Part shown: positions 3,411 to 52,600 of the stretch, piece after piece | How positions within the stretch are numbered: the first letter of the stretch is position 1 | How the letters are laid out: each line of letters starts with the position of its first letter | Source of the DNA: Eledone cirrhosa | Lineage: Eukaryota | Direction: 5' to 3' | NCBI GenBank assembly: GCA_964016885.1 | Contig: OZ024742.1 | Location: forward strand, 378,262,001-378,326,000 | DNA length: 64,000 nt | Made by a program: the position numbers and the translations under genes | The notes under the pieces: generated by a model | Told to the model about the DNA's origin: nothing | Databases searched by the model: none | The model's input: the letters and a program-made list of their open reading frames with translations, nothing else

Positions 3411-3600
3411 TTGTTTCTACATTTGGCACAAGGCCAGCAGTTATCCGGTGTATTACTGGTACTTTATTTGATCACCCCGTAGGTATTAAAGGCAAAGTTA
3501 ACCTCGGCGGGATTTAAACTCAGAATGGCTATCGCCGTAACTCTTTGCTGCAAAGCATGGCGTCCGACCCTCTACCGATACTGCCAGTCCACCGCCCCTT
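3411..3600 (-). mobile_element. tRNA-derived SINE (family 1), full length, (ATT)n tail
   Basis: Minus strand has A-box-like TGGCAGTATCGG and B-box-like GAGTTTAAATCCC; homologous copies at 54324, 55345, 55844, 56655, 59176, 62345; flanked by similar TTTAATAAT(A/T)ACAATAATAAT tracts. Confidence 0.88.
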
Positions 3601-4312
3601 TAATAATTACAATAATAATAATGCTTTCTTTATTAACCACAAGGGTTTACATAAAGTAGACATTAAGTACAGTGCAGGGCAATACAGGACGGTACAAATG
3701 GGCATTTCTGCGTGTTAAAAAAACAAAAACAGAGGATGTAACAAAAAAATAACAATGAAAAATTCCCCAATAGGGGGAGACTTCCGAGGGACATTTGTGG
3801 AGAAAGCCCATTAAAAGGCCACTGTCACCCTGACCACCAGGGCAAGTGCCCCCTCCCAGTTTTCCACCTTTAATTTACAGACAGATACTCAGAGTAGGCC
3901 CATTCACACTGGCCATACTTGCTTCTTTCACCCATCTTTCAGCAAAATGCTGGGAAGAGAGCACTTCCCTCTCTACCCTGATTTTCCTTTTCAAATGAAA
4001 TTTGAAAAAGTTAATCAGGGCATCACCGAAGAGGTAAGTGCTCGTCTTCAGCCCTTTCAGACGTGTCCACTATACTATCTCTTTCGCCATGGCCACCAGA
4101 CAGATAAAAACTGCCTGCCCTTCCCGGCTAAAGGAAGAGGGTGGGGAAATTGTCCATAGGCCCCGGCCCGAAAGTCATTCCGAAGAGATTAGCTAGTTGA
4201 TTTTCGTCTTTTCGTCGACGCTTAGAATTTCTCCAAGTACGTCGTCGCTCTTCCCATCCACTAATCCTCTATAGAACGCCAAGGTGGATTTTCCACCGAT
4301 CACATTGCTCGA

Positions 4313-6995
4313 TTAGTCGAGGGCAGTTAGCGCCTGAAGACATTCCAGTCTCCAAGCGCTCCCACTCCGTCTTCGCTTGACCCAGGACTGCAGCTCCGTC
4401 AAGGAGACGAGCTGGGGAAAGACGCGTCTAACAAACGGTGACCACACCTGATCACCGTCGAGGAAGAGGTGGAGATGTCGTAGCCTGAGCGCGTGTCTGC
4501 GCATCATCAGCAACGGCATGCCCATCCCTCCACGTAGCGGGTGTTGACAGCAGATGGACCGCCTGACCATCGGAGTGCGTTCCTTCCACAAAAAGCGAAA
4601 GAGCCAACGCTCCAACGCAGTCAGGCGGGGATTAGGACAAGGTACGACGGTCAGGCGGTAGTAGATGACGGACGCGATGTACGCGTTAGCCACCTCCGCT
4701 CGACCTTTCAGGGATAGCTTCCTCTCCGCCCATTTCTGGGTGAGAGAAGTCACCCTGCTCGTCACCTCGTCGCAGTCTTTGTCCGTCTGGAGGTCTGGAC
4801 CGAACCAGACCCCTAGCAATTTAACCGGTCCGTCCGTCTAGCGCCCGACGACGCTGTTGGACGGCATGGACCTGACTTTTCCTGGTTGATCATTGCTCCT
4901 GTCACCGCTTCGTATTCTCTTAGTGTAGTGCCGATCGCCTCGATGTGTTTGGCGTTCGACACCACTACGGTGACATCGTCCGCATATGCTGACACGGATC
5001 TTCCGCATCCTAGTTCGCGCGGGACCCCCTCAACGTCTCCAGTTTGTGCAGTAATGGCTCGAGAGTCAATACGTACAAGAGGGACGAGAGGGGACATCCT
5101 TGGCGTACCGAGCGCATGATGTTGAACGGTTCCGAAAGGGGACCGTTCACTCTCACCACAGAGCAGATATCGCTGTGCATGGCACCGATCCAGCCTCTAA
5201 AGGCGGGCCCAAAGCCAGCCGCCCTCAGGACTGCCTCTAGGTAACGATGGTCGACCCTATCGAAAGCTTTCGACTGATCTAAATTGATCAAGGACCAACC
5301 CGTGCCAGGTTCCCTAGATATCCTCTCTACGATGTATCGCATGAGGTGGAGGTTGTCGTGGATGGATCTGTCGGGAATGGCGCACGTCTGCGCCTCTCCC
5401 TCCAGACAACCAACGACAAGCGCCAACCTCTTTGCTAGCACGTTGGCCAAAATCTTGAACTCTGTGTTTAGCAGGGTTATGGGCCTGAAATTATCTATGT
5501 TATCCCCCTTGTTCGGATCCTTTCTCAGCAGTGCCACAGCTCCTCGGCTCACAGAGCTGGGAATTCTCCCGTTCTGTTGCCAGTTGCAGTAGACGTCCGC
5601 CAAGAGGCCTCCGAACAAGTCTGGCATCTGTGCGTAAAGTTCATAGGGCAGACCATCTAAACCAGGCGATTTACCCCTTGTGCAGCCAGTCATTGCCTCC
5701 CTTACTTCAGCGGCTGTTATCGGCTTTTCGCAACACTCCGCCTCAGTGGCCGAGAGCCGCGGCAGTCCGTCGAGGTAGACACTAAAGTCCATCCCTCGAC
5801 CCGGCCCGCCGCTGCCCCGAACAGCTGTGCGAAGTGTCGCTGAAAAGCTTCACACATTTGCCCGGGATCGAGTAGCATGCGCCCGTCGTGGTCTACCAAA
5901 GGCCGGATCGTGGCTTTGTTGCCACGACGCGCCTCCGCCACTCGGGCCCATTGAACGGCTTTCTTCCCCTCGTGTCTGAGAGCACGCAACCTAGCTCTGA
6001 CAACGCAGCCTTCGTCCTTTGCATTGAAGAATTGGTCAAGGGCCAATTTCGCCGCAAGCACATCGGTCGCGTTGCCTTTGCTAAGCGCCTCGTCTAATTT
6101 TCTAACTAATTCTCCCTCTGCTCTATTTTTCTCTATTGCTAAAGCCTTACCAAACCTAATGGATTCTATTCTAATCGATATTTTCAGAGCAAACCACCAC
6201 TTGTTGTTAACTAGTTCGCTAATCCGGTCTCTGTAGGCCTTGCGCTATGGTAAGGACGCGTTTAGTTTCCAGTAGCAGGGTCCTCGTCTATGAAGCCTAT
6301 CTAAGTCAAGCACACAGATCACGAATTTGTAGTCCGTGTAACTGACTATCTTGAATTGTGGACAGCCTATGCTAGACCTATCTATTTCCCTACAAAATAC
6401 TCTATCTAGATATGATCTGGATGACCTTATGCGATTTGTCCAAGTCCACATTGGCACATTCGGGAAATCCAATCGGTACCTGTCAGACAGTTCAAAACGC
6501 CTGAGCAGGTTGGTGAGACTTTTGCACCCTCCTCCCCTATCCACTAATCCCACACAGTCGCAGCGTGCATCTAAGATCCCGTTCCAGTCGCCCACTAACA
6601 CTAAAGAGCGGGACGTTCCAAGAAAGGTCTCCAGACGCCGGAAGAAATCAGGCCGCCCTGCTCCTGTCGGGGCATAGACGGCCACTAACCTGAAAGCTTG
6701 CCCGTCTCCGCTGGTCACGTCCAGCACCACCAACTTACCTTCTGGGTCCAGGAAGATGGCCCGTATGGCAAGATCCAAACCTCTCCGAAAAAGCACAGCA
6801 ACTCCTCCCCCCGATCCCGGACGGCTGGGAGATGCGTACACATCGTATCCTCCGAAGATCGGTGCGAAAGCCTGTGCTTCGGAGATTCTGGTCTCGCTGA
6901 TGGCCACTACATCTATGTTTAGTGACCTGAGGTCGTTGAGCAGGTGGCCCTGCTTCCATGACGACCCCAAGCCACGCGCATTTATGCTGCCTATT
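4313..6995 (-). pseudogene. T1 ORF2 (APE-RT), broken by TAG at 6245, frameshifts and deletions
   Basis: ORF pieces 6245-6970, 5717-6061, 5010-5792, 4313-4819 colinear with other copies. Confidence 0.9.
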
Positions 6996-7043
6996 CTGAG
7001 TTAGGTCATGTTGAAATGGAGTGGAAAATATGGGAAAGACCAC

Positions 7044-51163: not shown

Positions 51164-51313
51164 AATAACAATAACAATAATAATAATAATAATAATAATA
51201 ATAATAATAATAATAATAATAATAATAATAATAATAATAATAATAATAATAATAATAAGAAGAAGAAGAAGAAGAAGAAGAAGAAGAAGAAGAAGAATTG
51301 TAATAATAATAAT
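51164..51313. repeat. Compound microsatellite (AAT)n-(AAG)n-(TAA)n, tail of D5
   Basis: Seen directly; AAG run 51257-51297. Confidence 0.97.
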
Positions 51314-51400
51314 GATTTCATTTATCGGCCACTGGGGCCGACATATAGGGGACAATACAAAGACAGGGTGTGTGGGTGTTTACAATAAAATTGAGTGAAG
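51314..51400 (-). mobile_element. Short 3'-terminal fragment T7 of the T2-type Tx1 subfamily
   Basis: ATTTCATTTATCGGCCAC...GGGGACAATACAAAGACAGGG matches 14045-14100. Confidence 0.8.
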
Positions 51401-52600
51401 GGTACTGCAAAAGCTCATGTGGCTGCAAAGAATAATTATTAATAACCAAAGCTGCAAGAAAGGAAAAGCAAATCTCAGTATGGCAAGGTTATCAGAAGTC
51501 TTTTAACAGTATTCCCCATACGTGGGTGCTGAACATACAGACGATAAAATAGCGCTAGATATAAAAACATCCATCAAACATGCCACGAGTAAATGGAAAA
51601 CAGTTCTACAGATATAAACAAAAGATGATTGTATAAAAACTGACCCCCTCCCAAGTAACAGAGGAATATTTCAAGGGGACTCCATTTCACCATTCTTCTT
51701 CTACCTAACATTGGCACTATTACCTGACATACTAAACAGGACTGGACTTGGATATAAATGCTGTACGCTGCAAATGAGAGTACATGGATTCACAAAAAAA
51801 ATAAACATTAAATATAGATTAGAAAATTATGCCAAGGCAACACTGAAGGGGTGAAAACTAGTGAAAACTTTAATATCACACTAGATAAAAAAACTGAGAT
51901 GAGAGAATTATATCAAACACTGACATAGAAATACTTAGGAACCAATGAACTAGGTAGGTTTCTACACTGGTTAAAGAAAAGTTTAGAACAAATACTATAG
52001 CCGTACTATATCACTACTTAAGGCGGAACTGAATGCAAATAATAAGATAATAGACATCAATACTCTAGCGGTCCCAGGAATAAGCTGTAGTTTTTAACAT
52101 TCTGAACTAGAGACTAAAATAACTAACATGACTAGACAGAAAAACAATAAAAATAACTATTGCGTTTAGAATACACCACCCAAAATCAGATGTAGAAAGA
52201 TTATACCTACCACAAACCTTATGCAACTAAAAATCTATTATTAAATAACAACTGTTAGACAATAAAAATATCTGATGAAAAATATAAAAAAAGTTATCAG
52301 AGAATGACGAAGTAACATTACTTTGGGATATGTCAATACACACAGACAGGGAGATCGAAACCAACAGACTAGATATTATAGTCAAAGACTTATAATTGAT
52401 GTATCTATTCCCACAGACGACAATATATCCCTCAAGGAAATGGAGAAATTATTTAAATATAAAGATCTGGAGATAGAAATAACCCGACCATGGAGGATGA
52501 AAACCAAAACAATCCATATAATAATAGGTGCTATGGGAATGATAAAAATAAACACACAGACAGATATATAATCAAAACCTCAGGACTTACCTCTAATGAA
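51400..52600 (+). pseudogene. Old, decayed R4-clade element remnant
   Basis: RGIFQGDSISP at about 51660; HHPKSDVERLYLP at about 52175; LIIDVSIPTDDNISLKEMEKLFKYKDLEIEI in 52323-52571. Confidence 0.8.

Follow-up and report, generated by a model that had tools for sequence, protein, structure and literature searches.

Opposite orientations of R4/Dong-like and Tx1-like retrotransposons on a shared (AAT)n microsatellite target in Eledone cirrhosa

Introduction

How does one microsatellite come to be filled with retrotransposons of two clades, all members of the one facing one way and all members of the other facing the opposite way? The question is posed by a 64,000-nucleotide stretch of the Eledone cirrhosa genome (assembly GCA_964016885.1, contig OZ024742.1, positions 378,262,001 to 378,326,000 of the forward strand; hereafter, the window), where positions 3411 to 52600 hold R4/Dong-like long interspersed nuclear elements (LINEs) on the plus strand, and Tx1-like LINEs and a short interspersed nuclear element (SINE) on the minus strand. 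Here we report that target specificity with opposite polarity is real and well supported by copies across the genome, and that the array is very probably a pile-up of separate insertions in one (AAT)n/(ATT)n tract by two clades that would prime on opposite strands.

Results

Polarity in the window and across the genome

The order and strand of the 16 elements in the window, fixed by self-BLAST, Pfam and mapping against natural copies, matched in full those proposed in an earlier note made from the sequence alone. All perfect runs of at least 4 units in the window read AAT on the plus strand. An (AAT)n tract lies at 13 of the 15 junctions between the elements, in line with the note's 'nearly every junction', the exceptions being at 41364 and about 51405; and no element was found nested in another between 3.6 and 51.3 kb, as had also been claimed, though mapping to natural copies revealed internal deletions in several. 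The plus-strand LINEs comprise R4-like family a, family b (34-40% protein identity to a) and one decayed copy, and the minus-strand LINEs are Tx1-like families A (with two 5' types), B and C.

We then asked the genome (3.0 Gb) for the same pattern, searching with each end of each family and reading 29 non-window loci per end (n=116 flanks); these copies had the 30 highest scores out of 40 scored, from 214-2517 candidates, and are not a random draw. With at least three AAT units within 45 nt of the end, in window orientation, as the criterion, a tract was present at 29/29 R4 5' ends, 29/29 Tx1 5' ends, 27/29 R4 3' ends and 26/29 Tx1 3' ends, and ATT runs in that orientation at 0/116 flanks. Read in the sense of the element, AAT precedes 29/29 R4 5' ends and ATT precedes 29/29 Tx1 5' ends, and the opposite tract never does; the background probability of (AAT)3 on a given strand of a 45-nt stretch is 0.0036 (0.36%; from 200 kb of evenly spaced genome). 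Further young Tx1 copies had an ATT/G junction in 20/20, and with 29/29 and 20/20 of their 5' flanks in the tract the Tx1-like elements exceed the >20% that serves as target-preference criterion in PMC4494074.

Beyond the tract, 89/116 flanks run into an R4, Tx1 or SINE copy with the expected polarity (two of these assignments being weak blastx matches), 26/116 are unclassified and 1/116 is reversed. The reversed neighbour (L025/L178) was considered as a counter-example and rejected, since it belongs to a different family with a restriction-like endonuclease (RLE). This third RLE family is abundant and sits mostly in (CATA)n (L178:1-2435, L219-L233). SINEs adjoining the tract had Tx1 polarity in 19/19 cases. 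Counting from the tract rather than from the element, all examined loci yielded 76 distinct junctions with R4 after AAT, 17 with Tx1 after ATT and 0 crossed; and of the 11 tracts with at least 4 units in the evenly spaced 200 kb, 9 touch a member, all in polarity, with 8 of these 9 coming from two loci.

The flank and orientation census thus extends the strict opposite polarity to dispersed copies, with the 5' ends of both clades in the tract, and the array is not a special locus. A telomeric setting, raised in the earlier note, was rejected: the window lies 0.58 Mb from the C3 end, which is there a 21-bp satellite; TTAGGG is absent from the terminal 10 kb at both C3 ends, which carry short-period satellites of 21 and 19 bp (L216-L218); and only 2/29 R4 5' ends lie <5 Mb from a contig end.

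Identity of the two clades

R4-like family a encodes one open reading frame (ORF) of 1141 aa, in which RVT_1 is the sole Pfam domain and an apurinic/apyrimidinic endonuclease (APE) domain is absent by Pfam. Its C-terminus bears a CCHC knuckle and a PD-(D/E)xK-type nuclease motif in the PD-D form (motifs read by eye), and the seven best fold matches of a structure model (mean predicted local distance difference test score 84.7) are all R2 proteins. R4/Dong-clade proteins lack N-terminal C2H2 fingers and have instead a diverged SANT/Myb-like domain; at the N-terminus of family a no C2H2 pattern was seen, and the model has a helical domain at residues 58-128, where Pfam gave no match. Named Dong or R4 proteins are absent among the 120 listed homologues, whose labels gave no name, and we call the family R4/Dong-like from its layout and target. 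An HDV-like (hepatitis delta virus-like) self-cleaving ribozyme has been shown at the 5' end of Bombyx Dong and Ascaris R4; none was found at the R4-like 5' end with Rfam or with a self-written descriptor run without a positive control, and no ribozyme, tRNA or other Rfam RNA matched. In young R4-like copies a 325-bp unit occurs once or twice within the 5' untranslated region (UTR; window 30794-31443). R4 5' ends themselves start with an AAG-rich stretch, and AAT tracts often become (AAG)n beside them (window 51257-51298; L014, L049, L154, L161).

Intact Tx1-like copies lie outside the window, as at L136 with frames of 715 and 1195 aa. ORF2 has the Pfam domains APE-RT-zf-RVT (RT, reverse transcriptase) and ORF1 has a CCHC knuckle, read by eye. 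Residues 58-900 of ORF2 score 298 bits against Xenopus Tx1 ORF2 vs 175 bits against human L1 ORF2, and the nearest named relative is an Argonauta protein (73% identity). In a quick RT tree, which has no L1 row and whose basal forks are open, the family falls in a supported clade with the Argonauta and unnamed proteins, apart from the Xenopus Tx1L, Tetraodon and Oryzias rows (rows not labelled Kibi or Koshi). Given this separation from the vertebrate Tx1 rows, microsatellite targeting by the Tx1-like family likely arose separately from that of Kibi/Koshi-type elements. The 3' ends carry AATAAA ~10 nt before the end, a signal that would tend to stop read-through into a facing element. Members of family A have ORF2 and the 3' end in common (~93%) and differ in their 5' UTR/ORF1 modules (window 7740-9402 vs 23231-25310; L027, L082); the ORF1 modules are 37-66% identical in matched stretches, and a third 5' type occurs in flanks.

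Composition of the array

In the following, R4-like copies are on the plus strand and Tx1-like copies and the SINE on the minus strand, assigned by mapping unless stated otherwise. The array structure continues left of 3411, as the window starts (1-3388, minus strand) with the end of a 26-kb satellite of 45-bp units, which are tandem copies of the 5' head of the SINE family present in the array. The SINE body, upstream of the window, is still attached to this satellite (L063:7131-10000, L062, L061); the head is also expanded, on a smaller scale, at L081 and L072. At L063:6535-7106 a 570-bp (TAG)n takes the place of the expected AAT tract, with an old R4-like 3' end on one side and the SINE that bears the satellite on the other. 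An imperfect (AAT)n tract at 3389-3411 pairs with 3601-3622 as a 22-bp target duplication (one mismatch) flanking the ~190-bp SINE (3412-3600), the last 26 nt of which are similar to Tx1-like 3' ends.

There follow a near full-length Tx1-like family A copy of 5' type A1 with broken ORFs and an internal deletion (3623-9402; Pfam, mapping), an (AAT)18 tract (9403-9456), a full-length R4-like family a copy with its ORF interrupted near the 3' end (9457-13978; Pfam, mapping), an imperfect (AAT)n tract (13979-14046), a 5'-truncated Tx1-like family B copy (14047-14769; DNA identity to family A 77%), an (AAT)17 tract (14770-14820), a frameshifted R4-like copy of an older family a subfamily (14821-19718) and an (AAT)n tract (19719-19772). 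The next Tx1-like copy, of family A and 5' type A2, has a 460-bp internal deletion and frameshifts (19773-25310; Pfam, mapping), and is separated by (AAT)8 (25311-25334) from a 5'-truncated R4-like family b copy (25335-26975), which is followed by (AAT)15 (26976-27020), a 5'-truncated family a copy of the older subfamily (27021-30604) and a short imperfect (AAT)n tract (30605-30630). The young, full-length family a copy at 30631-35478 contains the single 1141-aa ORF (31980-35405) with RT, CCHC and PD-D nuclease (Pfam, mapping, structure model), and runs into an element tail with an (AAT)n tract (35479-35515).

Further to the right lie a Tx1-like family A copy of 5' type A1 with an internal deletion of ~2 kb (35516-39371), (AAT)13 (39372-39410), a 283-bp 3' stub of R4-like family b (39411-39693; self-BLAST), (AAT)17 with one unit AGT (39694-39744) and a 5'-truncated Tx1-like family C copy (39745-41364; 81% to family A). 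At 41364/41365 this copy meets, with no tract between, the 3' end of the next Tx1-like element (family A, 5' type A2, internal deletions; 41365-46587), which lacks its tract and ~3 terminal bases; insertion into the downstream copy's tail together with a small deletion would fit this junction. An (AAT)n tract (46588-46637) leads to a young, full-length family a copy with one frameshift (46638-51163), and its tail, (AAT)27, (AAG)n and (AAT)4 (51164-51313) to a ~90-bp Tx1-like 3' stub of family B type (51314-51405), which has no tract on its 5' side and at ~51405 directly abuts an old decayed R4-like fragment (51409-52600; 32-50% protein identity to family a). Outside the array, window 55052-55337 is a self-inverted stretch of ~290 bp (73% identity) that adjoins a SINE and is possibly a miniature inverted-repeat transposable element.

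Insertion sites and target duplications

A young unrelated repeat (756 candidates; L184-L195, L149) that bears two ATT tracts in its tail region provided empty and filled sites. Among 12 fetched copies the second tract has 9-20 units (median 14) in 9, two copies are without the spacer and one differs; the filled copies (n=2) read (ATT)8, Tx1, (ATT)14-15. Tx1 therefore splits existing tracts, with ~8 units gained, and the earlier note's suggestion that each insertion leaves new target for both clades agrees with the tract found on both sides. The two tracts of this repeat distribute fresh target for Tx1-like and R4-like elements.

The SINE gave the sharpest view of the target. In 40 head-tail pairs (a few being script mis-pairings) a duplication of at least 6 nt was present in 31. 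It contained more than ATT units in 22 of them, with ATTAT as its start in 18 of the 22. At the 13 sites with informative flanks, inspected by eye, the duplication is 11-22 nt long and starts with ATTA (TTATT in one) directly after the SINE end. SINE duplications nearly always begin with ATTA and finish in varied A/T-rich sequence. Given where the duplication starts, the ATT 'tail' of the SINE is duplicated target, and the ATT tail of Tx1-like copies is likely also target rather than element; several Tx1 3' ends adjoin no more than two or three repeat units (L071, L081, L093). The last 26 nt of the SINE match Tx1 family C at 18/26 positions, the best of 1560 windows, with weaker matches to families A and B. 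Common 3' end, target and polarity suggest that the SINE is likely mobilised by Tx1-like enzymes.

At the other end, full-length Tx1 5' ends join directly after ATT in 27/29 and 20/20 copies (47/49), and this register is admissible in 8/9 clean truncated Tx1 junctions. A fixed cut register for R4 was rejected: at 45 clean 5' junctions the three phases are admissible in 33, 31 and 33.

Strand choice

In target-primed reverse transcription the priming strand is the one opposite the element sense, so that, from the opposite polarity, the ATT strand would be the primer for R4 and the AAT strand the primer for Tx1 and the SINE. The 5' flanking tracts could not be supplied by an RNA tail and hence count for target-directed insertion. 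We propose that a nick in the ATT strand likely provides the primer for reverse transcription of Dong-like elements, and that for Tx1-like elements, and likely for the SINE via Tx1 enzymes, the nick would be in the AAT strand. For the Tx1 machinery, the SINE duplications would place the first nick on the AAT strand, at 5'-TAAT^R-3', and the second cut about 11-24 nt away on the opposite one; each Tx1 event would then duplicate 4-8 repeat units and leave one more usable tract. With a tract on both sides of every insertion the target would be renewed for both clades, and arrays would lengthen through repeated insertion with random clade order, some other loci probably also duplicating up to the next copy's 5' end. 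The earlier note had RLE and APE enzymes nicking opposite strands; its two enzyme classes stand (C-terminal RLE, N-terminal APE), and what follows from the polarity is opposite-strand priming.

The step from priming to nicking has a competitor, which we consider less probable but a real contender: both enzymes might nick either strand, the TpA step being symmetric, and polarity might come from pairing of the RNA 3' end with the freed primer strand, through (AAU)n for R4 and (AUU)n read-through for Tx1. Beyond their 3' ends young R4 copies do have an AAT-like tail whose variant units are shared, the AATAAA ~10 nt before the Tx1 end means that transcripts would likely enter the tract, the ATT register at 47/49 Tx1 5' junctions means that the ATT strand is probably also cut, and annealing of RNA to target has been proposed for SART1 and R1Bm (PMC7265360). 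The SINE duplications, with their constant ATTA start and variable end, better fit a first nick placed by sequence and a second cut placed by distance, and swapping the endonuclease changes the target in TRAS/SART (PMC7265360). We lean modestly towards the nuclease, rather than RNA-primer pairing, as what selects the strand; pairing would alter only this step and leave the pile-up of insertions as it is.

A broader scheme, to which we give rather less credence, is a three-party system in which the SINE, itself abundant, would seed tracts by duplicating short ATTA sites with Tx1 enzymes, and the Tx1-like and Dong-like LINEs would extend them, each from its own strand, so making and keeping most AAT microsatellites of the genome; a new Tx1 copy might also pair with its neighbour's 5' end, duplicating the 54-240 bp between and making 5' chimeras. 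If true, this would be a genome-wide, self-renewing safe target that two enzyme classes use in common, and homology would assist one route of integration.

Growth of the array

For 12 of the 13 window LINEs tested a closer relative exists outside the window, with a tie for the remaining 1, and the window copies range from 99.5% identity with young relatives down to decayed; both observations fit growth by sequential insertion over a long time. Local duplication of a few founders, by unequal exchange or at insertion, instead of at least 14 insertions, is a very unlikely main source of the window array and is largely refuted there by these relatives and by copies from at least 5 families with differing spacers. 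It does look like a second route at other loci: five Tx1 copies at C2:188.05 Mb are 0-14 substitutions apart with a common 54-bp variant spacer, a 200-bp spacer occurs three times at C1:234.6 Mb, and the tandem neighbours L147 and L152 are identical across 1900 bp. The first two loci (L135-L139 and L140-L143, respectively) each consist of five Tx1 copies and no other element, all young and intact, with recurring spacers and mosaic haplotypes. One copy per array of this pure kind has a deviating haplotype. Copy B5 is without two 5' markers that the 10 others of its type all have, and so resembles a chimera with the type of the adjacent copy. These arrays could have come about by unequal exchange as well as by homology-assisted integration.

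Regular alternation of the clades, which the earlier note had set against random order, was rejected as a rule, being not beyond chance in runs tests (12 runs in 15 LINEs, p=0.051; 10 in 13, p=0.12) or among genome-wide neighbours (34 mixed vs 36 same-clade, unadjusted; Fisher tests p=0.71 and 0.33 on counts adjusted by eye for three loci). Random clade order and dispersed arrays are what passive accumulation predicts. They thus speak against the host keeping mixed convergent arrays as dual-strand small-RNA sources (trap loci), as does the polyadenylation-like signal at Tx1 3' ends. Tail-to-tail pairs, whose convergent 3' ends the earlier note thought could make dsRNA or dual-strand piRNA, are present by construction and arrays do gather young copies of active families, but we consider such a role unlikely.

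Several observations weigh against the pile-up of insertions. Two window junctions are without a tract, 26/116 flanks are without a classified neighbour and 5/58 3' ends without three perfect units, 9/40 SINE head-tail pairs are without a duplication, the sampled copies are biased to young ones by selection on best score, and in the absence of a fixed register R4 cut sites are not set by these data. The assembled order is also provisional, as none of the listed short-read contigs and restriction site-associated DNA (RAD) reads bridged 41364 or any tract; this can be cited for a rival in which tracts are only element tails or slippage products and arrays an assembly chimera across AAT tracts. 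We hold this last explanation to be highly improbable: tracts sit at 5' ends and empty sites exist, junction tracts are mostly <100 bp between distinct multi-kb copies, a chimera would not produce the polarity of the 5' flanks, and one 420-bp contig crosses the junction of the Tx1 stub and the old R4 copy with zero differences (the sequencing run may be of the source sample).

Discussion

The ingredients of this system are ordinary and known: Dong on (TAA)n, sharing of a repeat in opposite polarity, and microsatellite-specific Tx1 elements with SINE partners. What is likely new is a Tx1-like family on (ATT)n that would cut the strand opposite to Dong's, the sharing of one target across clades and the link to a SINE. 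The elements themselves are of known kinds, and nothing here points to a host function; rather, a common microsatellite target would explain some transposable element hotspots as a mechanical by-product, not a host niche. APE and RLE enzymes reading one symmetric repeat in opposite senses are also a clean setting in nature in which to tell the nuclease from RNA-primer pairing as the source of polarity, a question that the many intact young copies make testable.

Comparison with known systems

The closest precedent for shared use of a repeat is that of TRAS and SART, which belong to the R1 clade. In Bombyx mori these two families likewise occupy one simple repeat in opposite orientations via opposite strands (PMC7265360). 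Both, however, have APE and a telomeric target, whereas in the present case one of the sharing clades has RLE and the other APE, and their microsatellite is interstitial, with sites spread across chromosomes. Human L1, which prefers to nick at a T^purine step in A/T-rich DNA, resembles the Tx1-like elements in the APE-RT layout of ORF2 and probably in this step, but differs in that the probable primer strand here is A-rich, the insertions have no poly(A) tail and the ORF2 score is 175 vs 298 bits. Kibi, Koshi and the crocodilian Tx1 families are also microsatellite-specific, on (TC)n, (TTC)n, (TTCC)n and (TTTC)n, and Tx1-Mar with SINEU is a case of a SINE on the same target as its Tx1 partner, in which tandem copies sandwich the target duplication (PMC4494074). 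Unlike Kibi/Koshi, the Tx1-like family has (ATT)n, not a pyrimidine repeat, as target, and forms a separate supported clade in the quick tree. Our literature searches, which left Repbase outside, returned no (ATT)n-specific Tx1 family and no microsatellite array with a target shared by RLE and APE elements; further literature for comparison is PMC4640811, PMC8967140 and PMC4758252.

In Octopus vulgaris, Dong-R4 has been recently active (5 families, 1129 insertions), and Dong-R4 and L1-Tx1 are among the recently active LINEs in octopus, in a source whose main text never uses the word 'target' (PMC13282606). For Dong, specificity for (TAA)n is on record from insects, molluscs and cnidarians (PMC7998251). 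Unlike Dong, the R4-like elements are two families, 34-40% identical, on one target, and the HDV-like 5' ribozyme was not found with Rfam or the self-written descriptor. Dong, with its relatives from Bombyx, an ostracod, a snail and cnidarians, has no N-terminal zinc fingers, which are apparently absent from the R4-like family too. In other respects the two are alike: each has a single ORF with RT and a C-terminal RLE, and each has a (TAA)n target with TAA before the 5' end in sense orientation, the arrangement of the Dong 5'-junction construct (PMC7998251, PMC3774820).

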